IMG/VR virus record: IMGVR_UViG_2541047879_000004
Location: 1-52,210 of that record
DNA length: 52,210 nucleotides
DNA from: a virus
Taxonomy: Duplodnaviria > Heunggongvirae > Uroviricota > Caudoviricetes
Strand: one strand, 5' to 3'
Shown: piece by piece, positions 4,363 to 52,210 of the stretch
Layout: each line of letters begins with the position of its first letter
Position numbering within the stretch: position 1 is the first letter of the stretch
Notes under the pieces: model-generated
Told to the model about the DNA's origin: nothing
What the model saw: the letters and a program-made list of their open reading frames with translations, nothing else
Database searches by the model: none
Translations under genes and position numbers: made by a program

Positions 4363-4930
4363 TATCGCGTCCTCAACAATGAATTTTGTGATGCGGTGCC
4401 TGGTGCCTCCAGGTGACGTTAACCAGTTAACAATTAACGCCGGATACAGAGAATCCACCCATAACACTGTTTTTGGTTTTAACTGTTCCGCGTGCGCTCA
4501 GCCGCATTCACCACATCACAAAATTCACTTTAAAAAGGGCGGCATAGCAGTCACGGAGTAAAACTGATACCGCCAAACGTCACCAGAAAATTGATAACAG
4601 AGGGCGTTGCAGCGGGGTTGTCACTTAAGCGTATGGTCAACCTGACAACCCGGTGTCCTCAACGGGGGAAGGAATAACCCCGCCATACTTACCGCCGCGC
4701 CATTTCGCGGATTGCCACAACCGGAAGCGCACGATCGACGAAAATTTAACGACAGGCTATCTATGAACCAGCTACCTCGCCGTGCGCTTTCGCGTTATGG
4801 TCTGACTTTTCAGGGAAATATCCTTTCAGTAAACTGTCAGTGCCGGATGCTCACCCGTGTCCGGCGCACGCACTCCACCTCACCCGTGGAGAACTCCTTA
4901 ATTACCAACCTTAGCTTCGTTGGTTAGCTA

Positions 4931-12370: not shown

Positions 12371-12661
12371 CCTGGCCTGAAGCATTAACAACGGTAGGAA
12401 TTGCGATGGCGGTGACGCTGATGGTGTATTCGATTTGCCGCTGGGGATAAAAACGGTTTGCGGGAAAAGGAGAGTTAAGTAGAATTGCTGCGGGTGCTTG
12501 AGGCTATCTGTCTCAGGCATGAACACCAAAAGGCAGATAGAGAAAAGCCCCAGTTAACATTACGCGTCCGGCAAGACGCTTAACATTAATCTGAGGCCAT
12601 ATCTATGCTCTACACACGTAGGTTAGCCTCTTACGTGCCGAAAGGCAAGGAGAAGCAGGCT

Positions 12662-12817
12662 ATGAAGCAGCAAAAGGCGATGCTAATCGCCCTGATCGTC
12701 ATCTGTTTAACCGTCATTGTGACGGCACTGGTAACGAGGAAAGACCTCTGCGAGGTACGAATCCGAACCGGCCAGACGGAGGTCGCTGTCTTCACAGCTT
12801 ACGAACCTGAGGAGTAA
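12662..12817 (+). CDS. hok: Hok/Gef-family type I toxin (51 aa membrane peptide)
   Basis: MKQQKAMLIALIVICLTVIVTALVTRKDLCEVRIRTGQTEVAVFTAYEPEE: single TM helix plus conserved LCE(V/I)R motif; in-frame upstream extension (12605) is mok-like. Confidence 0.85.
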   Translation: MKQQKAMLIALIVICLTVIVTALVTRKDLCEVRIRTGQTEVAVFTAYEPEE

Positions 12818-18276: not shown

Positions 18277-18352
18277 GGCCCTTTAGCTCAGTGGTGAGAG
18301 CGAGCGACTCATAATCGCCAGGTCGCTGGTTCAAATCCAGCAAGGGCCACCA
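18277..18352 (+). tRNA. tRNA with CAU anticodon (Met or Ile2)
   Basis: Cloverleaf: acceptor GGCCCTT/AAGGGCC, anticodon loop cuCAUaa, TTCAAAT T-loop, CCA end. Confidence 0.8.
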
Positions 18353-18359
18353 TCACATA

Positions 18360-18436
18360 CCGCCATTAGCTCATCAGGAAAGAGCGCCAGCCTTCGAAGC
18401 TGGTTGCGCGGGGTTCAAGTCCCCGATGGCGGTCCA
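18360..18436 (+). tRNA. tRNA-Arg (anticodon UCG)
   Basis: Acceptor CCGCCAT/ATGGCGG, anticodon loop cuUCGaa, TTCAAGT T-loop, CCA end. Confidence 0.75.
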
Positions 18437-18449
18437 TTATCTGCATCAT

Positions 18450-18526
18450 GCGTTGTTAGCTCAGCCGGACAGAGCAATTGCCTTCTAAGCAATCGGTCAC
18501 TGGTTCGAATCCAGTACAACGCGCCA
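18450..18526 (+). tRNA. tRNA-Arg (anticodon UCU)
   Basis: Acceptor GCGTTGT/ACAACGC, anticodon loop cuUCUaa, TTCGAAT T-loop, CCA end. Confidence 0.8.
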
Positions 18527-18761
18527 CACTTATTTTCCCTGGCTCGCTTTTGCGGGCTTTTTTTTAAATGTCTCACAATTCAGGCGGTTGACTGTTGTCT
18601 GGTTTGCGGGGAGTTTGTTAAAAGAAACTGGCATGGTGAATCCCCCTGTGCGGAGGGGCAATCAGCGAGTAGGTATATGGGATAATCGCGGATTCAGGTG
18701 CTGGTACTGAATTCACCGGGAGGCACCCGGCACCATGCAATGGCACATAGCGCCACTCTCC

Positions 18762-37851: not shown

Positions 37852-38177
37852 AAACCTTTCGCTGGAAAGTGAAGCCGGATATGGAGGTGAACTCGCAGCC
37901 ATCGGTGCGTGAAGTGCGTTTTGGTGACGGGTACTCACAGCGTATGGCGGCAGGGCTGAATGCTGACCTGAAAACATACAGGGTGACGCTTTCCGTGACC
38001 CGGGAGGAGGCCCGGCATCTGGAAGCGTTCCTGGCAGAGCACGGTGGCTGGAAGGCATTTTTGTGGAAGCCACCCTATGCATACCGGCAGATAAAGGTGA
38101 CCTGTGCCGGGTGGTCTGCGCGGGTCGGGATGTTGCGCGTTGAGTTCAGCGCGGAGTTTAAGCAGGTGGTGAACTGA
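37848..38177 (+). CDS. M: Minor tail protein M
   Basis: 109 aa, lambda gpM position and size. Confidence 0.9.
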   Translation: MKTFRWKVKPDMEVNSQPSVREVRFGDGYSQRMAAGLNADLKTYRVTLSVTREEARHLEAFLAEHGGWKAFLWKPPYAYRQIKVTCAGWSARVGMLRVEFSAEFKQVVN

Positions 38178-38875
38178 TGCAGGATATTCGAGAAGAAAGT
38201 CTGAGCGAGTCGGTTAAATCAGAGCAGTCACCGCGGGTGGTACTCTGGGAAATTGACCTGACGGTGCAGGGTGGTGAGCGGTATTTTTTCTGTAATGAGC
38301 TGAATGAAAAAGGGGAGCCGGTCACCTGGCAGGGGCGGAAGTACCAGGCGTACCCGATTGATGGCAGCGGCTTTGAAATGAACGGGAAAGGCAGCAGTGC
38401 CAGACCGTCGCTGACGGTGTCCAATCTGTTCGGTCTGGTCACCGGGATGGCGGAAGACCTGCAGAGTCTGGTGGGGGCCACGGTGGTCCGCCGTCGGGTG
38501 TATGCGCGTTTTCTGGATGCGGTGAATTTCGTTGCGGGCAATCCGGAAGCGGACCCGGAGCAGGAGCTGAGCGACCGCTGGGTGGTGGAGCAGATGTCGG
38601 AGCTGACAGCCATGACGGCCTCGTTTGTGCTGGCCACACCGACCGAGACGGACGGAGCGCTGTTTCCCGGTCGTATCATGCTGGCGAACACCTGTATGTG
38701 GACCTACCGCTCTGATGAGTGTGGTTACACGGGCGGGGCTGTGGCGGATGAGTTCGATAAACCCACCACGGATATCCGTAAGGACAGATGCAGCAAGTGC
38801 ATGCGCGGGTGTGAACTGCGCAGGAATGTCGGCAATTTTGGCGGTTTCCTTTCCATTAATAAACTTTCGCAGTAA
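38177..38875 (+). CDS. L: Minor tail protein L
   Basis: 232 aa, lambda gpL position; C-terminal Cys cluster. Confidence 0.9.
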   Translation: MQDIREESLSESVKSEQSPRVVLWEIDLTVQGGERYFFCNELNEKGEPVTWQGRKYQAYPIDGSGFEMNGKGSSARPSLTVSNLFGLVTGMAEDLQSLVGATVVRRRVYARFLDAVNFVAGNPEADPEQELSDRWVVEQMSELTAMTASFVLATPTETDGALFPGRIMLANTCMWTYRSDECGYTGGAVADEFDKPTTDIRKDRCSKCMRGCELRRNVGNFGGFLSINKLSQ

Positions 38876-38880
38876 ATCCC

Positions 38881-39624
38881 ATGACACAGACAGAATCAGC
38901 GATTCTGGCGCACGCCCGGCGATGTGCGCCAGCGGAGTCGTGCGGCTTCGTGGTAAGCACGCCGGAGGGGGAAAGATATTTCCCCTGCGTGAATATCTCC
39001 GGTGAGCCGGAGGCGTATTTCCGTATGTCGCCGGAAGACTGGCTGCGGGCAGAGATGCAGGGGGAGATTGTGGCACTGGTCCACAGTCATCCCGGTGAGC
39101 TGCCCTGGCTGAGCGAGGCTGACCGGCGGCTGCAGATAAAAAGCGCACTGCCCTGGTGGCTGGTCTGCCGGGGGGAAATTTATAAATTCCGCTGTGTGCC
39201 ACATCTGACAGGACGGCGCTTTGAGCACGGGGTGACGGACTGTTACACGCTGTTCCGGGATGCATACCATCTGGCGGGAATTGATATGCCGGATTTTCAT
39301 CGCGAGGATGACTGGTGGCGCAACGGCCAGAACCTGTACCTGGACAATATGGCGGTCACCGGCTTTTACCGGGTGCCCCTGTCCTCTGCACAGCCGGGCG
39401 ATATCCTGCTGTGCTGCTTCGGCGCATCGGTGGCTAATCATGCCGCCATTTACTGCGGCAACGGTGAACTGCTTCACCATATTCCTGAACAACTGAGTAA
39501 ACGGGAGAGGTATTCCGAAAAATGGCAACGACGAACGCATTCTGTCTGGCGTCACCGCCACTGGCACACATCTGCCTTCACGGGGATTTACAACGATTTG
39601 GCCGCCGCCTCAGCCTGTATGTGA
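38881..39624 (+). CDS. K: Tail assembly protein K (MPN/NlpC-P60-like)
   Basis: HSHP...SxxD JAMM-like motif (VHSHPGELPWLSEAD) and Cys-His region (DCYTLF...H). Confidence 0.9.
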   Translation: MTQTESAILAHARRCAPAESCGFVVSTPEGERYFPCVNISGEPEAYFRMSPEDWLRAEMQGEIVALVHSHPGELPWLSEADRRLQIKSALPWWLVCRGEIYKFRCVPHLTGRRFEHGVTDCYTLFRDAYHLAGIDMPDFHREDDWWRNGQNLYLDNMAVTGFYRVPLSSAQPGDILLCCFGASVANHAAIYCGNGELLHHIPEQLSKRERYSEKWQRRTHSVWRHRHWHTSAFTGIYNDLAAASACM

Positions 39625-40202
39625 ACACGGCAGCGGAAGCCATTCGCGCCCTGTCGATGCAGATGCCGGGCTTTCGCCGTCAGATGAACGAAGGCTGGTA
39701 CCAGATACGTATTGCCGGTGATGACACGGCACCGGAGGCGGTGTATGCCCGTCTTCACGAACAGCTGGGTGAGGGAACGGTCATCCACATTGTGCCGCGA
39801 CTGGCCGGGGCCGGAAAGGGTGGACTGCAGATTGTGCTGGGGGCGGCAGCCATCGTGGGCTCTTTCTTCACGGCCGGAGGCTCGATGGCGTTATGGGGTA
39901 CAGCCCTGAGTGCCGGTGGTTTTTCTGCCACCACGATGCTGTTTTCACTGGGTGCCAGCATGATACTGGGCGGTGTGGCCCAGATGCTGGCCCCGAAGGC
40001 AAAAACACCGGATTACCGCGCAACGGATAACGGCAGACAGAACACGTACTTTTCCTCGCTGGATAACATGATTGCCCAGGGGAACCCGATGCCGGTGCCT
40101 TACGGGGAAATGCTGGTTGGCTCCCGCCGTATATCCCAGGACATCAGCACCCGTGATGAAGGCGGGGGCGGAAAGGTCGTGGTTATCGGGCGGCAGGGGT
40201 AA
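39522..40202 (+). CDS. I: Tail assembly protein I
   Basis: ICLHGDLQRFGRR...IHIVPR...QNTYFSSLDNM like lambda gpI; overlaps K 3' end. Confidence 0.9.
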   Translation: MATTNAFCLASPPLAHICLHGDLQRFGRRLSLYVNTAAEAIRALSMQMPGFRRQMNEGWYQIRIAGDDTAPEAVYARLHEQLGEGTVIHIVPRLAGAGKGGLQIVLGAAAIVGSFFTAGGSMALWGTALSAGGFSATTMLFSLGASMILGGVAQMLAPKAKTPDYRATDNGRQNTYFSSLDNMIAQGNPMPVPYGEMLVGSRRISQDISTRDEGGGGKVVVIGRQG

Positions 40203-40545
40203 AAAGAATAAAAAAATCCCGCAGTGATCGCGGACAGGAACTGCGGGAGAGTTACGAAGATTAAGTGTAAGGAATTATTCTTATATCACGACAAAAAAAT
40301 TAACGCAGAGAAATTATACGCGCCACGGTCAGTTTGTGAAAATGTGAAGATATTCAGAATTTTTATGCCATTACCGGTTTTAACCAACAGGATTATCGGT
40401 GGGCATGAAAGAAAACCCCGGTATCTGCTGATACCGGGGGTTCTCTTTAGCATGGCAGAAATGTGTTTCATGCTTTTCGGGCGAAGGATATCCGACTTCT
40501 GTACGGAATGGCAAGTGGCGGTTAATTTATTCAGGGGAAGGCTGT

Positions 40546-43500
40546 ATGGGAAAAGGTGGCGGTAAGGCACACACGCCTCGTGAGGCGAAGGATAATCTCA
40601 AATCCACGCAGATGATGAGTGTGATTGATGCGATTGGTGAGGGACCGATAGAAGGTCCGGTGAAGGGACTGCAGAGTATTCTGGTGAACAAAACCCCACT
40701 GACGGACACGGACGGCAATCCCGTGATACACGGTGTGACGGCGGTCTGGCGCGCCGGGGAGCAGGAGCAGACACCACCGGAAGGCTTTGAGTCCTCCGGA
40801 GCTGAAACCGGACTGGGCGTGGAAGTGACGAAGGCAAAACCGGTGACGCGCACCATTACGTCCGCGAACATTGACCGCCTGCGGGTTACCTTCGGGGTGC
40901 AGTCACTGGTGCAGACCACGTCAAAGGGCGACCGTAATCCTTCCTCTGTCCGGATTCTGATTCAGTTACAGCGTAATGGTCGCTGGGTGACGGAAAAGGA
41001 CGTCACCATTAACGGCAAGACCACCTCACAGTTCCTGGCCTCGGTGATTCTGGATAATCTGCCGCCCCGGCCCTTTAACATCCGGATGGTCAGGGAGACG
41101 GCGGACAGCACCACGGACCAGCTGCAGAATAAGACGCTGTGGTCGTCATACACCGAAATCATCGATGTGAAACAGTGCTACCCGAACACGGCCATTGTGG
41201 GGCTGCAGGTGGATGCGGAGCAGTTCGGCGGCCAGCAGATGACGGTGAACTACCATATCCGCGGTCGCATCATCCAGGTGCCGTCAAACTATGACCCGGA
41301 AAAACGCACGTACAGTGGTATCTGGGACGGCAGTCTGAAACCGGCATACAGCAACAACCCGGCCTGGTGCCTGTGGGACATGCTGACTCACCCGCGCTAC
41401 GGCATGGGAAAACGTCTGGGGGCGGCGGATGTGGACAAGTGGGCGCTGTATGCCATCGGGCAGTACTGCGATCAGACGGTCCCGGATGGTTTCGGGGGGA
41501 CCGAGCCGCGGATGACCTTTAATGCGTACCTGGCACAACAGCGTAAGGCGTGGGACGTTCTCAGTGATTTCTGCTCTGCGATGCGCTGTATGCCGGTATG
41601 GAACGGTCAGACGCTGACGTTCGTTCAGGACCGCCCGTCGGATGTGGTGTGGCCGTACACCAACAGCGATGTGGTGGTGGATGATAACGGCGTGGGATTC
41701 CGCTACAGCTTCAGTGCCCTGAAGGACCGGCACACGGCGATGGAGGTGAATTACACCGACCCGCAGAACGGCTGGCAGACCTCCACGGAACTGGTGGAAG
41801 ACCCGGAAGCCATACTGCGCTACGGACGCAACCTGCTGAAGATGGATGCGTTCGGCTGTACCAGCCGCGGTCAGGCCCACCGTGCCGGACTGTGGGTGAT
41901 AAAGACCGAACTGCTGGAAACGCAGACGGTGGATTTCACGCTCGGGTCTCAGGGGCTGCGGCACACACCCGGTGACATCATTGAAATCTGTGATAACGAC
42001 TATGCCGGGACCCTGACCGGCGGACGTGTCCTGTCCATTGATGCTGCCACCCGCACCCTGACGCTGGACCGTGAAGTGACACTTCCGGAGACCGGTGCCG
42101 CCACGGTGAACCTGATTAACGGCAGCGGTAAGCCAGTGAGTGTGGACATCACCGAACACCCCGCGCCGGACCGGATACAGGTCAGTACCCTGCCTGATGG
42201 TGTGGAGACATACGGGGTGTGGGGACTCTCCCTGCCGTCACTGCGCCGTCGCCTGTTCCGCTGTGTCTCCGTCCGGGAAAACACGGACGGCACCTTTGCC
42301 ATCACGGCGGTGCAGCACGTACCGGAAAAAGAAGCCATCGTGGATAACGGTGCCCGCTTTGAGCCGCAGTCAGGTTCCCTGAACAGCGTCATCCCACCGG
42401 CAGTGCAGCACCTGACGGTGGAGGTGAGCGCAGCTGACGGCCAGTATCTGGCGCAGGCGAAATGGGACACGCCGCGGGTGGTGAAGGGTGTGCGCTTCAG
42501 TCTGCGCCTGACCAGTGGTAAGGGAACGGATGCCAGACTGGTGACCACCGCTATCACCGCAGACACGGAGCACCGTTTCAGCGGCCTGCCGCTCGGGGAA
42601 TACACCCTGACGGTGCGGGCGATAAACAGCTATGGCCAGCAGGGTGAACCTGCCACCACCACCTTCCGGATTGCCGCACCGGCAGCACCGTCGCGGATTG
42701 AGCTGACGCCGGGCTATTTTCAGATAACCGCCACGCCGCATCTTGCCGTTTATGACCCGACGGTACAGTTTGAGTTCTGGTTCTCGGAAAAGCGGATTGC
42801 GGATATCAGGCAGGTTGAAACCGCAGCCCGCTATCTTGGCTCGGCGCTGTACTGGATAGCTGCCAGTATCAATATCAAACCGGGCCATGATTATTATTTT
42901 TATATCCGCAGTGTGAATACTGTTGGCAAATCGGCATTCGTGGAGGCTGTCGGTCGGGCGAGCGATGATGCGGAAGGTTACCTGGATTTTTTCAAAGGAG
43001 AAATCGGGAAAACACATCTGGCCCAGGAGCTGTGGACGCAGATTGATAACGGTCAGCTTGCGCCGGACCTGGCTGAAATCAGGACGTCCATTACGAATGT
43101 CAGCAATGAAATCACGCAGACCGTCAATAAAAAACTGGAAAATCAGAGTGCGGCAATCCAGCAGATACAGAAAGTTCAGGTTGATACAAATAATAACCTG
43201 AACAGCATGTGGGCCGTGAAACTGCAGCAGATGCAGGACGGACGCCTTTATATTGCGGGTATCGGTGCCGGTATTGAGAATACGCCAGCAGGAATGCAGA
43301 GTCAGGTGCTGCTGGCGGCAGACAGGATTGCGATGATTAATCCTGCGAATGGCAACACAAAGCCGATGTTTGTTGGTCAGGGCGATCAGATATTTATGAA
43401 TGAAGTGTTCCTGAAATATCTGACGGCTCCCACCATTACCAGCGGCGGTAATCCTCCGGCATTTTCCCTGACACCGGACGGGCGGCTGACGGCGAAAAAT

Positions 43501-43638
43501 GCCGATATCAGCGGTAACGTGAATGCGAACTCCGGGACGCTCAACAACGTCACGATTAACGAGAACTGTCGGTTTACGAGAACTCGGCACAAGCGGGGAG
43601 AAAATACCGTTACTCAGTACAGCGAATACCTGGACTAA
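40546..43638 (+). CDS. J: Tail tip / host specificity protein J body (C-terminal receptor-binding domain apparently detached)
   Basis: 1030-aa lambda gpJ-like ORF; last ~22 residues non-J and stop lies inside a gix-like sequence. Confidence 0.85.
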
Positions 43639-43644
43639 TCGACA
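43619..43644. other. Degenerate gix-like recombination site (left boundary of invertible tail-fibre segment)
   Basis: ACAGCGAATACC TG GACTAATCGACA; outer half matches the strong site at 46638-46663 in inverted orientation, inner half diverged. Confidence 0.4.
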
Positions 43645-44515
43645 AACATTCAGCGGTGGCCTTTCTGGTGAACTATCCGGCAATGCTTCTACAGCTGCAA
43701 AATTAAAAACTGCCAGGAAAATAAGCAATGTGGCTTTTGATGGTTCCTCCGATATCACATTAAAAGCAAGTCATGTTGGTGCGTTTGCCTTAGGGAAAAC
43801 AGGAAGCACCGTTGCGAATGATAAAGCAGTTGGATGGAACTGGAGTAGCGGAGCCTATAACGCAACTATTAGTGGTGCATCAACGTTAATTATTCATTTT
43901 TATATGGGAGAAGGAAGTTGTCCTGCAGCTCAGTTTCGGATTAATTATAAAAATGGCGGTATTTTTTATCGTTCAGCCCGTGATGGTTATGGTTTTGAAG
44001 CCGACTGGTCCGAATTTTACACCACCACCAGAAAGCCTTCAGCAGGAGATGTTGGTGCACTGCCGTTATCTGGTGGTCAACTGAATGGTGCACTGGGTAT
44101 CGGAACATCCAGTGCTCTTGGCGGTAATTCGATTGTATTGGGTGATAATGACACGGGCTTTAAACAAAATGGCGATGGTAATCTGGATGTTTATGCTAAT
44201 AACGTCCATGTTATGCGCTTTGTCTCCGGAAGCATTCAAAGTAATAAAACCATAAATATTACAGGGCGTGTTACCCCCTCGGATTACGGTAACTTTGATT
44301 CCCGTTATGTGAAAGATGTTCGACTTGGTTCACAGCAATATTATGGAGTGAACAACTGGCAAACATGGAATTTCCAGTGCCCTTCAGGTCATGTATTGTC
44401 TGGTATTAATGTTCAGGATACAGGGTCTAACTCTGCCGATAATATAGCGGGCGTTTATTACAGACCCGTTCAAAAGTATATAAATGGCACCTGGTATAAT
44501 GTAGCGAGCGTTTAA
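43645..44515 (+). CDS. Silent alternative tail-fibre C-terminal cassette (S'v-like), no start codon of its own
   Basis: Homologous to C-terminal part of stf (LGGNSI(V/T)LGDNDTG(F/I)KQ(N/G)GDG, ...[11 protein letters not shown]); frame differs from J. Confidence 0.6.
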
Positions 44516-44516
44516 T

Positions 44517-45050
44517 ATGATGCACTTAAAGAACATAAAAGCGGGTAATGCTAAAACACTGGAACAGTATGAGTTAACAAAGAAACACGGAGTTATCTGG
44601 CTTTACTCTGAGGACGGAAAAAACTGGTATGAGGAAGTGAAAAACTTTCAGCCAGACACCATAAAGATTGTTTACGATGAAAATAATATTATTGTTGCCA
44701 TAACCAAAGATGCCTCCACACTTAACCCTGAAGGTTATAGCGTCGTTGAGATTCCTGATATTACCGCCAACCGGCGTGCTGACGACTCAGGTAAATGGAT
44801 GTTTAAAGATGGCGCAGTCATTAAACGTGTATATACCGAAGAAGAGTTGCGCCTACAGACGGAAAACCAGAAAAAAATATTATTACAGCAGGTCAGAGAA
44901 AAAACGCAGTTCTGGCAAACACAGCTTACTTTGGGGATTATCACTGATTCAGACAGACAGCAACTGATGAACTGGATGCGATACGTGCAACAGGTTGAGA
45001 CAACTGATACCTCGGTTCTTCCTGTAACATTCCCGGAACCACCAGAATAA
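44517..45050 (+). CDS. Tail fibre assembly protein (Tfa', alternative cassette)
   Basis: 177 aa paralog of 45081..45608 (MxHLKNIxAG...GVIWLY(S/T)EDGKNWY). Confidence 0.8.
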
Positions 45051-45054
45051 GAAA

Positions 45055-45078
45055 AGGCCCGTACGGGCCTTAATTTGT
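45055..45078. terminator. Bidirectional hairpin between convergent tfa genes
   Basis: AGGCCCGtacGGGCCT flanked by A/T runs. Confidence 0.55.
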
Positions 45079-45080
45079 TG

Positions 45081-45608
45081 TTATTCTGGTTTCTGTGGCC
45101 ATTCAGGCTTTGCAGTATCCACACGGCTGACCATAACGCTGTAGCGTTCCCATGATTCCAGTCGTGTGCGTTCCTCATCAGTTGCCATATTAAGTCTGAC
45201 AGCACGTTCCAGCGGTTGAATCACAGACTCCGCTTCGGAAAGCAAAGCGGCTTTTTGTAACTCTGCCTGCTGTTGCAGTTCCTGTTTTGTATATTCCCGC
45301 TTTACTACTTTACCATCCAGAAACTTCCAGTTTCCCGAGATATCGGCGCGACGGTTGGCTGTTATATTCGGTAACTCAACAACACTTAACCCGTCAGGGT
45401 TAAGTGTTGATACGTCTTTCTCAATACAACGAATAATCCCCTTCTGGTCATAAGCTATTTTTAAAGTATCATCCTGAAAGTTTTTTAATTCGTCATACCA
45501 GTTTTTACCGTCTTCTGTATATAGCCAGATAACGCCAGCTTTTTTCGTAAGCTGATACTGCTCAATGGTTTTGGGCTTTCCGGCGGTAATATTTTTCAGA
45601 TGTTGCAT
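45081..45608 (-). CDS. tfa: Tail fibre assembly protein Tfa
   Basis: 175 aa immediately downstream of stf on minus strand. Confidence 0.8.
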
Positions 45609-45623
45609 ATATTCTCCTGATGG

Positions 45624-48530
45624 CTATGCCTGTTCAACGTTATACCAGTTACCAGAAATGTATTTTTGTAGTGGTCGTGACACCATCCAGTCATCTCCAT
45701 CAACCTCACCAATAATTTGCAATCCTGTTGTCACATGACCATTACCTGGTTCGCAAAGTCCTCCGCGATATAATGCGTCAGAACGTCTGCCTCCCAGACG
45801 CACATTTCTGATAAAAGAACTATTCAGGTAATCATTTAAGTTTGAACCCCAGCACCCACCAAATATATTTCCATCGGTGTTATAACGGACGCCACCCGCA
45901 ATAAGAGCACCCGGTGAAATAAAGGATTTATCGTTCGGGTTAAACTGCCATAAAGCATCATTACCGCCATCGCCACGCATATGAATACATGGAACCGGAA
46001 ATCCATACTGTTCTGTCAGTAAATACCCAAAGCTGACCGCGCCGGGATAGCCCTGTCCATTGCGAATGGACAAGCCCTTAACTATCGGCACGTAATGACC
46101 ACCAGGAGTGGGATTCCAGGCAAACTGCGTCTGAACAAAAGGCGCGGTGGCATTATTCAACTGGTCTGCAAATGCGCCACTTCCATCAGGAATTATTCCC
46201 TGATGAATATATGCAACCCGCTTATAAAAATCAGCAGATGCGGGTTGAAGCCCAAATGCCAGTTGTCCATTTGAATAGAATAAAAGGACACCGTCGCCGC
46301 CCTGTTTAATACCAGTGTCGTTATCTCCGAGAGTAATGGAATTACCGCCCAGTGCGTTATCTGTACCAAGCGCCAGCCCACCATCAATTTTGGCCCCGTG
46401 GCTGACAGATATAGCACCTGTTCTCAGATTTATAGCGAATGGCCTTAATGGGCCGATATCACCGTTTTCGCCTTGTCCTTCAGCCGTCGGAATGAAATGA
46501 AGAAAATCTTCTGAACGACGGAAAATAAGACCGAAGGCATCATTGAAAATTCGCAGCGCATTCACCGTGCCAATTTTCAGTTCTCCGGTCATTTTATCGC
46601 CGGAACGCTGAACGGCGTTACCAGCCTTGTTTACCGTTTCCTGTAAACCGAGGTATTCGATAACGGCGGCAACGGTCGATTTCGCAAGAATATCCCGCCC
46701 AACTTTTGTCAGGGTTGCCAGACTGGCAACATCATTCCCCGTAAAATACGGAAACCTGTCTGCCGCAGTAGCAAGCCCGGCCAGCGCCGTCAGGGTGGCA
46801 TCTTTCGGTTGCTTACCCGCAAGCGCGCTAGTCATGGTGGTCGCAAAATTCGGGTCGTTGCCCAACGCCGCAGCCAGCTCGTTCAGCGTATTCAGTGCGT
46901 CAGGCGACGAGTCCACGAGGGCAGCGATCGCAGCCATAACATAAGCCGTGCTTGCGATTTGGGTATTATTCGTTCCCTGTCGCGCAGTTGGTGTTGTTGG
47001 CGTTCCGGTCAGTGCAGGACTATTTAAGGGCGCTTTCTTGTTCGTTTCACCCATTACCGCCTTAACCGCTTTTGGCGTTGCCGCCAGTGACTCGGAAGTG
47101 CTGTTGGTCGCACTGCTGAGCTGTACTATCCCCTTTTTCGTCGTGCTCGCATCCTCAAGCGCCACGGCGGATGCAATATCCTCTGCCCGTTTTGCCGCTG
47201 TCTCAGCGCGCGTTGCCGCGGATTCCGCCGTACTTTTGCTCTGAGCTGCCGCCGTCGCACTGCCAGCTGCCTCTGTCGCCTTCGTGGATGCCGTCGTGGC
47301 GCTGCCCTTTGCTGCTGACGCCTGTCTGGTCGCCTCATCTTTTGAAGCAGACGCAGATGATGCCGATGACGCCGCTGAACTGGCTGACGATGCGGCTGCC
47401 GCCTTAGAGGAAGCAGCATTGTCTGCTGAAGTCTTTGCATTTGTTTCAGAGGTTTTTGCTGCAGAAGCAGACCTCGCTGCTGCAGTGGCTTGCTCAGTGG
47501 CTTTGCCAGCCTTCGTTGTGGCTGTTGAAGCGGATGATGCGGCGCTTTCTGCCGATTTTCCGGCGGCGGTGGCACTGGCTGAGGCCTGCCCGGCACTTGT
47601 TGACGCGGCACTGGCAGATAATGCAGCCGCTGTTTTTGAACCTGCCGCAGCTGAGGCGCTCTGTCCCGCTGCTGTTTCAGAAGACTTAGCGTTCGTCTCG
47701 GACGTTTTTGCCGCCTTCGCGGAATTTCCTGCCGCCGTTGCCGAGGAAGCTGCACTACTGGCACTTGATGATGCATTCGTTTCTGAAGATTTCGCTGCCT
47801 CTTTTGAGGCCGCCGCACCCCGTGCCGAGGTGGCAGCTTCTGACGCCTTCGTGGTCGCTGTGGATGCAGAAGTGGCTGCTGATTGTTGTGACGCTGCCGC
47901 ATTCGTTTCTGACGTTTTCGCGGCACTGGCGCTGGTAGCTGCCGCGCTTTTTGATGACTCTGCAGCAGCAGCACTTTTTGATGCCTCAGAGGCTTTTGCT
48001 GATGCCGTTCCTGCGCTGGAAAAAGCCTCCTGAGCCGACGTCGCGGCCTGTCCGGCTGACGTGCTGGCTGCGCGTGCTGAGCCTGCAGCATCAGTCGCAT
48101 GGGTTGCCGCCTCACGGGCTGATGTGCTGGCATCGCCGGCTGACTTCTTCGCGGCTGCCGTGTTCTGTGCCACTGCGGACGCGTTACGCGCCACCTCTTC
48201 CACCATCAGTTCAAAACGGCGCAGTGCCTCCGGACGGGCATCATCCTCCGTCATGGCACCGAGAAAATCATTCAGCGTACCTGGTCTGGAACCTTCATAG
48301 ACGGTAATGGTCCCGGCATGTGAAGGCGGAAAACCTTCAACCAGCAGGGTGACGCTGTACTGACCATGCTCAACATCCATGCTGTAACGTCCGGCTTCAT
48401 CCGGATTTTCAGAGGCCACCGTGTTCACCACCACCGTGCTGCTGGTTCGTCTGGCCTTCAGCACAATGGTGCAGTTCTGTACTGGTTTTCCTGTGCCATC
48501 TTTAAGCACGCCAGAAATTTTTACTGTCAT
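45624..48530 (-). CDS. stf: Side tail fibre protein Stf
   Basis: 968 aa; N-terminus MTVKISGVLKDGTGKPVQNCTI like lambda Stf (recalled); long Ala/Ser/Thr-rich shaft repeats. Confidence 0.85.
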   Translation of the reverse strand: MTVKISGVLKDGTGKPVQNCTIVLKARRTSSTVVVNTVASENPDEAGRYSMDVEHGQYSVTLLVEGFPPSHAGTITVYEGSRPGTLNDFLGAMTEDDARPEALRRFELMVEEVARNASAVAQNTAAAKKSAGDASTSAREAATHATDAAGSARAASTSAGQAATSAQEAFSSAGTASAKASEASKSAAAAESSKSAAATSASAAKTSETNAAASQQSAATSASTATTKASEAATSARGAAASKEAAKSSETNASSSASSAASSATAAGNSAKAAKTSETNAKSSETAAGQSASAAAGSKTAAALSASAASTSAGQASASATAAGKSAESAASSASTATTKAGKATEQATAAARSASAAKTSETNAKTSADNAASSKAAAASSASSAASSASSASASKDEATRQASAAKGSATTASTKATEAAGSATAAAQSKSTAESAATRAETAAKRAEDIASAVALEDASTTKKGIVQLSSATNSTSESLAATPKAVKAVMGETNKKAPLNSPALTGTPTTPTARQGTNNTQIASTAYVMAAIAALVDSSPDALNTLNELAAALGNDPNFATTMTSALAGKQPKDATLTALAGLATAADRFPYFTGNDVASLATLTKVGRDILAKSTVAAVIEYLGLQETVNKAGNAVQRSGDKMTGELKIGTVNALRIFNDAFGLIFRRSEDFLHFIPTAEGQGENGDIGPLRPFAINLRTGAISVSHGAKIDGGLALGTDNALGGNSITLGDNDTGIKQGGDGVLLFYSNGQLAFGLQPASADFYKRVAYIHQGIIPDGSGAFADQLNNATAPFVQTQFAWNPTPGGHYVPIVKGLSIRNGQGYPGAVSFGYLLTEQYGFPVPCIHMRGDGGNDALWQFNPNDKSFISPGALIAGGVRYNTDGNIFGGCWGSNLNDYLNSSFIRNVRLGGRRSDALYRGGLCEPGNGHVTTGLQIIGEVDGDDWMVSRPLQKYISGNWYNVEQA
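46638..46663. other. gix/cix/pix-like DNA invertase crossover site inside stf (constant/variable junction)
   Basis: TTCCTGTAAACCGAGGTATTCGATAA, about 23 of 26 match to Mu gixL-type sequence as recalled; encodes AAVIEYLGLQE in stf frame. Confidence 0.65.
47120..48185. repeat. Ala/Ser/Thr-rich low-complexity repeat region of Stf shaft
   Basis: Protein segment of repeated (A/S/T)xSAxxA units; GC-rich DNA generating mirror ORFs in other frames. Confidence 0.7.
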
Positions 48531-48681
48531 ACTTTTCCACCAATAAAAAAAGCCCGCAGCAGTGACGCCACGGGGTTCAGGACAGTGTAACTTTACGTTT
48601 CCTCAAACGCAGTTCACCCCATAAGGTGGATGAACCTGCGTATCATAACAATATTTACAGAAGATAAATCGGCGTCTGTTG

Positions 48682-49281
48682 TCAGAAACGGTATCCGATA
48701 CCAACAATAAATGCATCCGTTCGCCAGTCGCCACTACCGGAACCTTCATAAGCAAGGTCAATGGTCACGGATTCGGTCGGGTTAAACTGCACGCCAGCCC
48801 CCCACGCCAGAGACGTGTTGCTGTGGCGACCGTCATCACTTCCGGTCAGCACATCGTGCGTTTTCCCCTTGTTGTCAGTTACGCGGAGATAATCCCCGGA
48901 GAAAGTCGACACACGGCTGTAAGCCACACCCGCCATCGCATACGCGCTGAACCATTCATTCACGCGTACAGACGGCCCCGCCATCACGCTGAACCAGCGG
49001 TTACGCACGGAATCTTCATGCCAGCGGGTATCGCTGTAGCGCGTTTTTTGCTCATCCTCAGCATTGGCATAACTGAAGGACGTAATCAGCCCCAGCGCGT
49101 CCGTAAACTCATAACGGTATTTCACGTTAATCCCGTTCAGATCATCACTACCGGGAACGTTCGTCGAGGCATGGAGATACCCCGCGCTCAGCGTGGACTG
49201 ATGTTCTGCTGCACTCGCTGGCGTAGCAGCGGCGACCTGCCAGACTACTGCGGACAAAATAACAGCACATAATTTACGCAT
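48682..49281 (-). CDS. lom: Outer membrane beta-barrel protein Lom (Ail/PagC/OmpX family)
   Basis: Signal peptide MRKLCAVILSAVVWQVAAATPASA; C-terminal ...GIGYRF beta-barrel terminus. Confidence 0.85.
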   Translation of the reverse strand: MRKLCAVILSAVVWQVAAATPASAAEHQSTLSAGYLHASTNVPGSDDLNGINVKYRYEFTDALGLITSFSYANAEDEQKTRYSDTRWHEDSVRNRWFSVMAGPSVRVNEWFSAYAMAGVAYSRVSTFSGDYLRVTDNKGKTHDVLTGSDDGRHSNTSLAWGAGVQFNPTESVTIDLAYEGSGSGDWRTDAFIVGIGYRF

Positions 49282-49299
49282 AATTACCTCTCGCTTTTC

Positions 49300-49330
49300 T
49301 GCAATAAAAAAGGCGCCATTTCTGGCGCCC
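49300..49330 (-). terminator. Rho-independent terminator (minus strand) between J-fragment ORF and lom
   Basis: GGCGCCagaaatGGCGCC followed by T-run on minus strand. Confidence 0.6.
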
Positions 49331-49348
49331 GTATCTGGGTTATAAAAT

Positions 49349-49831
49349 TCAGCTAATCGTGATGCCTGCAGTGGCTTTCTTCATCACCACAACCAGCAAA
49401 TCGCTGATACTTGCTGTGGGATACCAGTTATTTACCAGCCATGCTGACACCGAAAACTCCAGTGTCATGTGACCGTGACCGGCAGGCATATCAATAACAC
49501 CACTGTAAATCAGCGTATTATCCAGCGCGGTACGGTTATAAATTTCAGCACCGTTTTTCCGCACTATCAGACGGCATGAGGAGTAAATATCAGTATGCTC
49601 TTTCTCATGTTTAGCGCCGCTGAATGCCACCGCCGGAATAACAATCTGCCGGTCAAACGGCTGATCGTCATAAACCCTGACGGTAATGGTTCCTGATGGC
49701 CACCGCTCCGGTGCACGGGAGTCCCGGGGGAAAGCTTTGCCCACTGTTTTAACGAGATCGCCTTCAATCTGGTTCGCGGACAATTTTCCCAGAACCCGAG
49801 GTTTTAGATAATGGCGGTTTCTGGCCTGCAT
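49349..49831 (-). pseudogene. Inverted, detached fragment resembling C-terminal receptor-binding domain of J
   Basis: [21 protein letters not shown]...[15 protein letters not shown]...[10 protein letters not shown] resembles recalled lambda J C-terminus; lies upstream of lom on minus strand as in lambda J-lom order. Confidence 0.55.
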
Positions 49832-49865
49832 GGCATGATTTGTGCTTTTGGACGGGAGATTCAGC

Positions 49866-50105
49866 GTGCTGATTGGCTATGTAAGGGTATCAACAAATGA
49901 CCAGAATACAGATCTGCAACGAAACGCTCTTGTTTGTGCAGGATATGAACAAATATTTGAAGATAAATTAAGCGGAACAAGGACAGGCCGACCTGGATTA
50001 AAACGTGCTTTAAAGCGCCTTCAAAAAGGTGACGCACTGGTTGTCTGAAAACTGGACTGACTGGTTCACTGTATGCGGCATCTTGTCGTGCTGGTGGTGG
50101 AAGCC
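49866..50105 (+). pseudogene. pin: DNA invertase (Pin/Gin/Hin serine recombinase) N-terminal remnant with nonsense mutations, 3' part deleted
   Basis: [62 protein letters not shown] then TGA; downstream frame degenerate with second stop. Confidence 0.75.
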
Positions 50106-50107
50106 TA

Positions 50108-50240
50108 GAAAAAGTATCGGGTGTTACTGAACCGTGTTGATACATCAACTGCACCTGATATTGAGTGGCCTACGAACCCTGTCAGGGAGTAATCATTGGG
50201 ATTATGCCGCAGCACGTCTTAAGCAAGAACGTGCTGCGGT
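50108..50240. repeat. Direct repeat copy A: tfa 3' end (..[26 protein letters not shown]) plus hairpin
   Basis: About 130 bp nearly identical to 51166-51298. Confidence 0.8.
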
Positions 50241-50246
50241 TGGATG

Positions 50247-50915
50247 CTATTTTTTCCCTGAAGCGGAAAACATTACTACAGTACCTTGAACCTTGGTTTT
50301 AACATTCTCGAAATGCTCTGAGAGTATATGTGTTAAGCCTTCTTCGGAATCTTTTGTGTTTGAAAAGATGCCTTTCTGATTGTAAATGCGCATCAGTTTT
50401 TGACCGAAGCTATTGTGCACAACTCCATCGCCAAGAATTGTGGCTCCGTATAGAGTTCCATCGTCAGTTAAGGCCTGCGCCGCATTGCGTATTACACAGC
50501 TTTTTGTAGATATATTTCCAGGCAGGCAGTGAAGAAGGTAAAACATGGAAATGGAATCAAATTGACCATGTAACGCCGCGGGATAAGGTTCAAAAACATC
50601 ATGGCTAATTTTATGTTTAATTTTTGATTCCCCAGCCCTTGTAGATGCCGCGTTCAGGCTAGCTTCGTTCAAATCCATTAAAGATATCAGACTACTCTCA
50701 GGTACGTGAGTAAGGTAAAACCCAGTTCCAACACCAATATCCAGATGGTTGTTACCTACATGTTCCAGAAAGTGTGGAAGAAGGTGTTCCTTTGTAGGAC
50801 ATCCCCATGCAAGCCGATTTGATACTCCCAAAACCCACCAGTCATAAAGCTTTAGGGTAAGTGGTGTGTAAATTTTAGCCCCATCATCTGTGTTTTTTTT
50901 CATTGATTTCACCAT
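50247..50915 (-). CDS. Class I SAM-dependent methyltransferase (non-DNA type), cargo gene
   Basis: Motif I LDIGVGTG, acidic post-I LMDLN, motif II-like FDSISMFYLLHCLP; AT-rich. Confidence 0.6.
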   Translation of the reverse strand: MVKSMKKNTDDGAKIYTPLTLKLYDWWVLGVSNRLAWGCPTKEHLLPHFLEHVGNNHLDIGVGTGFYLTHVPESSLISLMDLNEASLNAASTRAGESKIKHKISHDVFEPYPAALHGQFDSISMFYLLHCLPGNISTKSCVIRNAAQALTDDGTLYGATILGDGVVHNSFGQKLMRIYNQKGIFSNTKDSEEGLTHILSEHFENVKTKVQGTVVMFSASGKK

Positions 50916-50971
50916 GTTATAGTTTTATTTGTGAATTAAATCAATTATGGCGATGAATTACAAGGGGTTAA

Positions 50972-51241
50972 ATGCTGCCGCAGCATAGCGATATTGAAAT
51001 AGCCTGGTATGCTTCGATACAGCAGGAGCCGAATGGCTGGAAGACCGTCACCACACAGTTCTACATCCAGGAATTCAGTGAGTATATTGCGCCACTGCAG
51101 GATGCTGTAGATCTGGAAATCGCAACGGAGGAAGAAAGATCGTTGCTGGAGGCATGGAATAAATATCGGGTATTGTTGAATCGTGTTGATACATCAACTG
51201 CACCTGATATTGAGTGGCCTGCAAATCCTGTCAGGGAGTAA
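50972..51241 (+). pseudogene. Tail fibre assembly protein C-terminal fragment
   Basis: ...[37 protein letters not shown]; only C-terminal part present. Confidence 0.6.
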
Positions 51242-51298
51242 TCATTGGGATTATGCCGCAGACACGTCGTATGCAGGAACGTGCTGCGGTTAGTTTGT
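51166..51298. repeat. Direct repeat copy B of tfa 3' end plus hairpin
   Basis: Near-identical to 50108-50240. Confidence 0.8.
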
Positions 51299-51355
51299 GA
51301 GCTTTCGATAGTGGTTGTTATTTTTGCCCTTATTTGTTCCGGAGGCCATGGTTCA

Positions 51356-51526
51356 ATGGTCCGTCTGCCCCCTGTGGTGATGTCAGCAAAATCAGCCACT
51401 GCGCGAACCACAATAGCCCGGGAAGATGCTGAAGATCACCAGGTAAAGCTGTCAGCGCAGAAACTGGAAGAACTGCTCGCATCAATGGTTAAGGATGAGG
51501 TTGATCGCAATGATGGGATTTATTGA
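51356..51526 (+). CDS. Small hypothetical protein (56 aa)
   Basis: ggagg upstream; weak. Confidence 0.3.
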   Translation: MVRLPPVVMSAKSATARTTIAREDAEDHQVKLSAQKLEELLASMVKDEVDRNDGIY

Positions 51527-51619
51527 CGTCAGCGAGAGCAGAAGGAAGAACTGAATAACCTGAATGATTTACGCTCAATCAGAGCGATGGCGATTAGCGG
51601 CAATCACGCTCGATAAAAT

Positions 51620-51646
51620 TAACCCCGGTGATCATCCGGGGTTTTG
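51620..51646. terminator. Bidirectional rho-independent terminator between convergent genes
   Basis: CCCCGGtgatcatCCGGGG then TTTT. Confidence 0.7.
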
Positions 51647-51652
51647 CATTCA

Positions 51653-52210
51653 TTAAAACCGCATCAACCTTTCCACCAATTGTTCTTTACGGGCAACGAT
51701 CCACCCATGTTGCTCCAGATAAAATTTAAACCGTTCCAGCGTGCATACCATCGCATCGGCGGGGACTTTTTCTGTGAACTCGACCTGACCGTGTTTATCG
51801 AAGTGGATCAGTAATGCGCATCCATTATTTGGGGCGGGGGAGTTTTGTGCTGCAGGAGGACGTTTGTGGAGTTCTTCTTCCATTGCGTTAAATTTTTCAA
51901 TGTAAGCTTCTTTTAGTCTGGCTGCTTTTTTGCCAGTAAATCCCATTACGAGGAACATGAAGCCGTCTTTTGTGATCAGGTAGCATCGTGATTCACGTTC
52001 TGCGCCGTTGCCAATTTCGACAGTCTGAACATCGGCCGAAAAGTTGGCTGATGTAAATTCGGGAGAGCAGTCGAGTGTGTCAATCTTAGCTAAAACGTGT
52101 TTATGTTGTTTATCGAAGTAGTCGGCAACAGCTTGAGAGGTGGTAACCAGGCGACCATCTTTGAAAAAGACTTTTGGTGACTCGTTAGAAAAAGTTATAG
52201 CTGTATTCAT
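51653..52210 (-). CDS. Rha-family phage regulatory protein
   Basis: N-terminal ...GRLVTTSQAVADYFDKQHKHVLAKIDTL... and ...YLITKDGFMFLVMGFTGKKAARLKEAYIEKFNAMEEEL pattern of Rha family (recalled); start codon at window edge. Confidence 0.65.
   Translation of the reverse strand: MNTAITFSNESPKVFFKDGRLVTTSQAVADYFDKQHKHVLAKIDTLDCSPEFTSANFSADVQTVEIGNGAERESRCYLITKDGFMFLVMGFTGKKAARLKEAYIEKFNAMEEELHKRPPAAQNSPAPNNGCALLIHFDKHGQVEFTEKVPADAMVCTLERFKFYLEQHGWIVARKEQLVERLMRF

Follow-up and report, generated by a model that had tools for sequence, protein, structure and literature searches.

Inversion between a tail-fibre crossover site and a quasi-site in the tail-tip gene J of a lambdoid prophage with a dead invertase gene

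Introduction

For the invertible tail-fibre segments Mu G, P1 C and e14 P, the invertase gene is expected to contain a recombinational enhancer in its 5' part. For Cin, the invertase of P1, recombination at quasi-sites was reportedly described by Iida and Hiestand-Nauer in 1986 (Cell 45:71) and 1987 (Mol Gen Genet 208:464), with the central dinucleotide said to govern site selection and the events said to have been obtained with plasmid substrates in the laboratory. Din-family invertases are moreover able to act in trans, as PinQ, PinR and PinE do on the P segment of e14, Fin on H, and PinE on Mu G and the Salmonella H segment (PMC12529663). The closest described system is prophage Phi4 of E. 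coli ST131 strain EC958, for which Forde et al. 2014 reported an inversion of 3106 bp despite a 'severely truncated' invertase and proposed action in trans, the candidate being the invertase of the P2-like prophage Phi1, which has nearly identical sites (PMC4134206). Here we analyse a stretch of 52,210 nucleotides (IMG/VR record IMGVR_UViG_2541047879_000004, positions 1 to 52,210; hereafter the window), an almost complete lambdoid prophage of the Phi4 kind in which the tail-tip gene J is split by an inversion joining a site within J to a crossover site of the tail-fibre switch.

At this locus a lambda-type tail module (J-lom-stf-tfa) is combined with a host-range switch of the Mu G / P1 C / e14 P type, and the switch itself is already known from Phi4 of EC958. 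The window derives from the draft scaffold GCA_000460075.1 KE701494.1 and was compared with E. coli O121 201805972 (L001), with the closest relative of its left flank (L003), with a 3.35-Mb contig of GCA_024391565.1 (L012) and with EC958 (L014). An earlier reading of the window (the original prediction) had proposed that an inversion disrupted J and separated the invertase gene pin from its cassette.

Results

The J gene is split by a base-exact inversion

The following features define the rearrangement:

40546-43638, plus strand: truncated J (J'), an open reading frame (ORF) of 1030 amino acids (aa).
49349-49797, minus strand: detached J C-terminus (J residues 1009-1157, 149 residues, receptor-binding domain), Pfam Ig_GpJ_C at E=1.5e-38.
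43569-49799, unstranded: inverted block, a gap-free 6,231-bp high-scoring segment pair (HSP) to L001 on the strand opposite to both flanks.
43557-43582, unstranded: left hybrid crossover site, TAACGAGAACTG-TC-GGTTTACGAGAA, from four-site comparison, BLAST breakpoints and a half-site scan.
49786-49811, unstranded: right hybrid crossover site, TTCCCAGAACCC-GA-GGTTTTAGATAA, from the same three analyses.

J' contains the Pfam domains FNIII-A_GpJ, Phage-tail_3, Ig_J, Ig_J_second and Phage_Tail_Tip and is without the C-terminal receptor-binding domain Ig_GpJ_C. Its J-derived part comprises residues 1-1008 and ends at 43569/70 (codon ~1008), after which 22 foreign codons are read out of frame from the 5' end of Sv', the alternative C-terminal segment of the tail fibre, up to a stop at 43636-43638. 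These junk codons close J' because the frames of J and Sv' differ. The original prediction of a plus-strand J body ending with about 22 non-J residues was thus borne out, but the stop codon, which it had placed inside the gix-like site, lies outside the site at 43557-43582; it is the junction between J and non-J sequence that falls within the 2-bp core of this site.

The series of domains that gpJ carries on a single polypeptide is accordingly broken into 1008 N-terminal and 149 C-terminal residues, located on opposite strands 6.2 kb apart. A 160-aa ORF (49349-49831, minus strand) contains the C-terminal portion and, in line with its predicted resemblance to the J receptor-binding domain, aligns with lambda gpJ residues 984-1131 (PDB 8iyk_J, E=3.6e-28) and also matches gpJ of phage A8 (E=1e-48). 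This ORF starts at an ATG at 49831, its 12 non-J residues being derived from the spacer between pin and gixR, the crossover site next to pin. The start ATG is fortuitous, and inspection of the sequence revealed no obvious ribosome-binding site or promoter for the ORF. Reading leftwards on the minus strand, the J C-terminus is followed by lom, stf and tfa, which is the lambda order in inverted form as had been proposed, and all of these elements were found with Pfam support.

The un-inverted order is observed at the same chromosomal locus, ompW/trpA, in L001 and L003: K-I-J(1157 aa)-lom-stf-tfa / tfa'-Sv'-recombinase stub-tfa fragment-methyltransferase-...-Rha-ash-'ompW. In these relatives a full-length J thus goes with the opposite arrangement. 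By BLAST, block 43569-49799 aligned with L001 at 99.2% identity without gaps while window positions 38161-43575 and 49796-52210 aligned with the other strand of the same locus, an agreement with inversion that is far beyond chance. The aligned pieces overlap by only 7 and 4 nt at the breakpoints, with 4 nt (TCGG) common at the exchange point. Exactly 43569-49799 was recovered as one block in 219 complete E. coli genomes with a 7.5-kb query. Reversal of the block in silico restored a J of 1157 aa, identical to that of L001 at 1148/1157 and to that of L003 at 1140/1157 positions (98.5-99.2%), and resulted in a single colinear HSP of 29,393 nt with L003. The breakpoints, at 43569/70 and 49798/99, lie within a few bases of those proposed originally (~43570 in J and ~49790 upstream of pin), and the inverted block measures 6,231 bp from core to core or 6,255 bp between the outer ends of both sites.

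The parental sites account for both junctions. The parental J site reads TAACGAGAACTG-TC-GGGTTCTGGGAA (window 43557-43582 in restored form, TAACGAGAACTGTCGGGTTCTGGGAA) and parental gixR reads TTCTCGTAAACC-GA-GGTTTTAGATAA, the two partners having the same central dinucleotide in inverted orientation, that is TC in the J site and GA in gixR on one strand. In the left hybrid site (core TC, 43569-43570) the outer half is from J and matches poorly, and the inner half is the Sv'-side half of gixR and matches perfectly. In the right hybrid site (core GA, 49798-49799) the left half is the reverse complement of the good half of the J quasi-site (8/12) and the right half is the pin-proximal half of gixR. 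The window junctions are thus exact reciprocal recombinants of the J site and gixR at the 2-bp core, with zero bases gained or lost. A general search for inverted repeats returned no long ones at the breakpoints, which argues against homologous recombination. The inversion between J and gixR is real and nucleotide-exact, and it is a conservative, reciprocal site-specific exchange as opposed to a generic inversion.

The tail-fibre cassette retains its crossover sites

Within the inverted block the elements of the tail-fibre switch are as follows:

43571-44515, plus strand: Sv', alternative C-terminal tail-fibre segment, Pfam gp37_C and gp37_trimer.
44517-45050, plus strand: tfa', chaperone going with Sv', Pfam Caudo_TAP at 1.4e-31.
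45081-45608, minus strand: tfa, tail-fibre assembly chaperone going with Sv, Pfam Caudo_TAP at 9e-35.
45624-48530, minus strand: stf, side tail fibre of 968 aa, intact, Pfam phage_tail_N at 2.7e-70.
46638-46663, unstranded: gixL, genuine site inside stf, TTCCTGTAAACC-GA-GGTATTCGATAA, top-scoring site in the window at 22/24.
48682-49281, minus strand: lom, Ail/Lom outer-membrane protein of 199 aa, intact, Pfam Ail_Lom at 9e-125.

The stf gene consists of a constant part, Sc (46652-48530), and a variable part, Sv (45624-46649), with the boundary between ...VIEYLG and LQET at gixL. Lacking a start, Sv' is read only as an extension of the constant part. Sv-tfa and tfa'-Sv' are oppositely oriented between inverted crossover sites and either orientation gives an in-frame fibre; flipping the 3.1 kb between gixL and the left junction in silico yielded an alternative Stf of 941 aa (vs 968) that ends in Sv'.

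Both gixL and the reconstructed gixR, of 26 bp with a 2-bp core, match Din-family reference half-sites at 22-24 of 24 positions. They are letter for letter the Phi4_5prime and Phi4_3prime sites of EC958, the reverse complement of gixL being identical to 'Phi4_5prime', TTATCGAATACCTCGGTTTACAGGAA, in Table 3 of PMC4134206, where the Phi4 sites are compared with the Mu/P1/e14/p15B consensus. In the window gixL has the orientation of the right hybrid site and the opposite one to the left hybrid site. The proposed separation of pin from its cassette holds for pin, which was split off, but not as a loss of the cassette, whose 3.1 kb are still bracketed by gixL and the left hybrid site.

The state of stf differs among copies. 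It is intact in the window and annotated as an incomplete pseudogene in several un-inverted relatives (L001 8728-10962, L003 26843-28339 and L014 8466-9962); the copy with a broken J thus carries a better preserved side fibre than several un-inverted relatives.

The neighbouring invertase gene is dead and the cassette flips nonetheless

Two features lie beyond the right junction:

49866-50056, plus strand: pin remnant, the first ~63 codons of a Din-family invertase, matching the N-terminal part of Pfam Resolvase only.
49887-49950, unstranded: putative Fis-dependent recombinational enhancer inside the pin remnant, from a motif scan.

The pin remnant, which occupies 49842/49866-50048 if taken as far as its stop, carries a nonsense mutation at codon 61 (W61, TGG to TGA, 50046-50048). 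Its homology to invertases ends at ~50056, after ~190 nt, where a 3' fragment of tfa takes over, and it is without the C-terminal half of the catalytic domain and without the DNA-binding domain. Together with the upstream half-site the stub is identical at 249/264 nt (94%) to the intact invertase of EC958 Phi1, a 199-aa recombinase that adjoins a cassette of its own. The stub is annotated as 'recombinase, incomplete' in relatives, the arrangement of stub, tfa fragment and methyltransferase is found in 508 complete E. coli genomes, and the right flank as a whole is 99.96% identical between the window and the un-inverted O121 genome. The original prediction of a pin remnant next to the inversion is therefore right as regards the 5' stub and was corrected as regards its role, in that pin was already dead and is equally dead in un-inverted relatives. 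This indicates that the enzyme acted in trans.

The state of the cassette beside the dead gene was evaluated with chimeric probes of 503 nt, in which 250 nt of cassette were joined to the pin stub including its stop codon. The flipped cassette was found in 152 complete genomes, all at >=99% identity (at least 99%), and the unflipped cassette in 375, of which 238 were at >=99%. As identity bands overlap with Phi1-type loci, the 508 stub genomes and the 152 plus 375 Sv or Sv' joints do not allow other aberrant partners of gixR to be counted. Orientation also differs between isolates with neighbouring accessions, 4/0 (NZ_CP023849.1) being flipped and both 4/1-1 (NZ_CP023844.1) and 4/4 (NZ_CP023826.1) unflipped. 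Opposite orientations in such similarly named isolates indicate ongoing flipping, driven in trans, over short time scales. Since the normal cassette flips in nature although the pin next to it is dead in every case, the reaction must be carried out in trans by an invertase encoded at another place in the genome.

The recombinational enhancer probably survives in cis in the 5' part of pin. This part contains two Fis-like 15-mers of the form G-N13-C, A/T-rich at the centre, at distances of 95 and 144 bp from the core of gixR, and the enhancer of Hin lies ~100 bp from one hix site (PMC3798978). A surviving enhancer would explain why the orphan sites stay active.

The J site is a quasi-site that was used in two backgrounds

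The half-sites of the J site match the Din consensus at 8/12 and 4/12 positions, making it a quasi-site and not a full consensus site. An unusually good mimic of gix it is not: this idea was rejected as ~100 other 26-mers in the 52-kb window do equally well. The quasi-site is missing from the J allele of L003, which makes susceptibility to the inversion allele-specific. The L003 allele (25545-25615) has a different J C-terminus (QIKGKLSANQ...), like that of phage A8 gpJ.

The exact 1030-aa J' was found on the source scaffold only, and the exact junction patterns were not found in GTDB species representatives, JGI metagenome contigs or IMG/VR. The junction-spanning 160-aa ORF, in turn, is present on 8 contigs from other samples, all of which align across the right junction at 99.4-100%. 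Three short contigs with the J inversion end at the insertion point of an insertion sequence (IS) and are ST131-like, while contig ERR217069 is free of the IS and the nearest to the window.

A second full instance is contained in L012. This contig is 100.000% identical to EC958 over 5,004 + 5,743 nt (10.7 kb), has ISEc12 in lom and, like EC958, is without yciG-F-E between trpA and the prophage. In it the stretch from the J site to gixL is inverted, giving a J' of 1018 aa and the joint TTCCTGTAAACC-GA-CAGTTCTCGTTA. The same J dinucleotide as in the window was used here, reached either from the flipped state of the cassette or with a cassette flip that came afterwards. The window genome differs in carrying yciG-F-E and no IS, and its identity to L012 is only 98.0-98.9% in the constant part of stf and in J. 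These differences in background mean that the same secondary site served in two or more independent events, or in one forward event and one reversal. The inversion between J and gixR is thus real and recurrent, and its absence from the 5,426 complete E. coli genomes searched shows that it is rare.

In ST131-type copies lom is split by ISEc12, an element of the IS21 family (L014 10114-13299; L012 11009-13512), with the insertion point corresponding to window 48902/48906.

Other features of the prophage

The remainder of the window is organized as follows:

Left end: integrase, RecE-like exonuclease, CI- and CII-like regulators and O/P-like replication genes, then head and tail genes.
Right end: Rha/ash, adjoining yciE-yciF-yciG-trpA.

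A class I SAM-dependent methyltransferase gene (50247-50915, minus strand) lies between direct repeats of ~145 nt (50095-50241 and 51144-51291; 89% identical). Both repeats are 3' ends of tfa genes and the first is fused directly to the truncated pin; the methyltransferase looks like a cargo gene captured via recombination between tfa copies. Three tRNA genes are found at 18277-18526, upstream of the lysis/late region, namely tRNA-Met(CAT), tRNA-Arg(TCG) and tRNA-Arg(TCT), the first of which is annotated as tRNA-Ile in one relative. Rfam matches at gathering score were obtained for the antisense RNA DicF (4537-4588, minus strand), the sok antitoxin RNA (12492-12667, plus strand), which implies a module of the hok/sok type, and the small RNA STnc100 (18602-18791, plus strand). 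In lambda the I and J genes abut. Here they are separated by a spacer of 340 nt (40203-40545) of low GC content (~47%) that contains two hairpin/terminator-like elements, one near 40214-40245 and one near 40413-40445. Relatives have the same spacer, which gave no Rfam match and may contain a small moron or a regulatory RNA.

Discussion

The structure of the locus is very probably the outcome of a Din invertase acting in trans that paired gixR with the J quasi-site and thereby inverted 6,231 bp, splitting J. A related Din-family serine invertase encoded elsewhere would work on the cassette sites in trans, probably using the Fis enhancer that appears to survive in the pin 5' stub. On the occasion recorded here it would have paired gixR with the weak J quasi-site instead of with gixL, and a 2-bp staggered cut followed by a 180-degree exchange would have inverted the block. 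The account is built on what was observed directly: the anatomy of the locus, the exact reciprocal breakpoints, the parental arrangement, natural flipping beside a dead pin and the J event in a second background. What we add by inference is which enzyme acted in trans, what part the enhancer plays and that infectivity was lost.

Several points weigh against this account. Queries of the 7.5-kb region, of the left and right junctions and of the alternative J-Sv junction found neither junction in the 5,426 complete E. coli genomes, and none of the 508 among them with the dead-pin arrangement has the J event. These searches were aimed at the J junctions only and other products of quasi-sites may exist unnoticed. 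By simple half-site matching the J site does not stand out, as a GA/TC core together with a half-site matching at >=8/12 (at least 8 of 12) positions is found in 104 other 26-mers of the window. The source is a short-read draft scaffold, its junctions are those of the assembly, and the catalyst is a postulated enzyme.

An extension of the same mechanism would see the J site as a recurrent and reversible secondary site through which the invertase of a co-resident prophage (e.g. a P2-like one) switches off the tail tip, amounting to sabotage between prophages or to a 'locking-in' by the host. Possibly the stand-alone J receptor-binding domain or the re-oriented lom-stf would then protect the host, by analogy with what has been reported for StfE2. 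We consider this improbable.

It is also quite unlikely that the J site is a selected secondary site and the inversion a programmed reversible switch that turns the tail tip off or provides the host with a free J receptor-binding domain or a re-oriented lom-stf. The use of the same dinucleotide in two backgrounds would fit such a switch, as would the hybrid sites, which keep a perfect half-site and matching cores so that reversal is possible, and the creation of an ATG-initiated ORF of 160 aa; there is also the precedent of chimeric fibre proteins with a host function made by inversion, such as StfE2 via PinQ in e14 (PMC12529663). A selected site would, however, hardly match at only 4/12 in one half, be equalled by some hundred 26-mers of the same window and be missing from the closely related J allele of L003. 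The J-Sv' joint is moreover out of frame, the new ORF has no obvious signals for its expression, and the arrangement is absent from all complete genomes searched, including those with the dead pin.

That the element's own Pin inverted the block in cis before its gene decayed, with no need of a trans enzyme, is less probable still, even though the distance from the right junction to pin is 55 bp and an invertase acts preferentially on the sites that belong to it. The same dead allele, with its stop at codon 61, its truncation and its fusion to the tfa fragment, is carried by the 508 genomes in which J is un-inverted, and the nearly identical right flank of O121 likewise belongs to an un-inverted copy. 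As the dead allele is shared and the inversion is confined to few genomes, decay of pin predates the split of these prophages. The EC958-type instance, L012, is 100% identical to the un-inverted EC958, and its inversion therefore arose after the truncation of pin. Normal cassette flips beside the dead gene point the same way.

An artefact of assembly or scaffolding, in which the block was misoriented in the draft genome, perhaps from a culture mixed for the normal flip, was given very little weight. Inversions of prophage tail fibres are known to confuse assemblies (PMC4134206) and the source is a draft. The window nevertheless contains no N, so that both junctions lie within contiguous sequence, and the joints share only 4-7 nt, too little for a mis-join by a graph assembler; taken together these two observations make neither mis-assembly nor homologous recombination credible. 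Furthermore, both joints are reciprocal and fall exactly in the 2-bp core of a crossover site, the right junction was assembled independently in seven other contigs from other samples and the full structure in GCA_024391565.1, and a mixture for the normal flip cannot produce a J-Sv' joint. Invertase-independent illegitimate recombination (a microhomology-mediated or replication-slippage inversion ending near gix by chance) can be all but dismissed, for although only the TCGG is shared at the exchange point, as in many such events, both joints sit precisely in the 2-bp core of an invertase site of 26 bp, neither joint gained or lost bases in what was a reciprocal exchange, the core dinucleotide of the partner is the same and oriented as an invertase needs it, and random breakage would not have repeated the identical event in a second lineage.

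For the prophage, the trans-driven inversion has predictable consequences. With a J' lacking its receptor-binding domain, virions, if made, should have no functional tail tip, and we regard it as a sound inference from sequence that the prophage would be defective for tail-tip function. The genes lom, stf and tfa now point against the late operon, and J' is followed by Sv' and tfa'. None of the displaced genes has a broken reading frame and stf is better preserved than in several relatives, which suggests that the inversion is recent. A perfect half-site and a compatible core persist in each of the hybrid sites, so that both reversal and continued flipping of the cassette are mechanistically possible.

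The locus represents a clean, base-exact natural example of a DNA invertase acting off target in a chromosome and splitting the essential tail-tip gene of its own, already decaying prophage. It shows that crossover sites orphaned by the death of their invertase gene can still recombine while the cell has a related enzyme that is active, and that such sites can drive both prophage inactivation and structural variation, which short-read annotation would show as a 'J pseudogene plus fragments'. As a natural and recurrent case it lends itself to the study of the sequence rules of quasi-site choice. What is new is a natural instance of the known quasi-site behaviour of Din invertases, in trans and in a prophage that has lost its own invertase; the system as such is not of a new kind.

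Comparison with known systems

The nearest counterpart, Phi4 of EC958 (PMC4134206), belongs to the same element family at the same locus, ompW/trpA, and shares the 26-bp sites, the cassette of ~3.1 kb, the truncated invertase and the order J-lom-stf-tfa. It too inverts despite a dead invertase, which was attributed to an enzyme in trans (PMC4134206). In contrast to the window, J is intact in EC958, as in all 5,426 complete genomes, and the window adds an inversion of 6.2 kb via the J site, is without ISEc12 in lom and has an intact stf.

The arrangement Sc-gix-Sv-tfa / tfa'-Sv'-gix-invertase, the in-frame alternative fibre C-termini and the 26-bp sites with a 2-bp core are common to Mu G/Gin, P1 C/Cin and e14 P/Pin. 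In the window, however, the prophage is a siphovirus and the constant part that of a lambda Stf-type side fibre, not of a myovirus fibre, no functional serine invertase is adjacent, only the stub, and the J event uses a site outside the cassette.

The action of PinQ and PinR on e14 P (Kirigo et al. 2025, PMC12529663) is alike in that the invertase of one prophage inverts DNA of another, defective prophage in the same cell and makes new gene joints. In that case the regular sites recombine and yield a chimeric protein that is in frame and has a phenotype, whereas here the site is off target and the J joint is out of frame.

The mechanism resembles that reported for the P1 Cin quasi-sites, in which the Din invertase brings a genuine crossover site together with a secondary one that matches poorly. 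In the window the two partners share TC/GA, and the exchange took place exactly at this dinucleotide. The event in the window differs in that it is fixed in natural chromosomes, was driven in trans beside a dead invertase, recurred at the same site and disrupted an essential virion gene.

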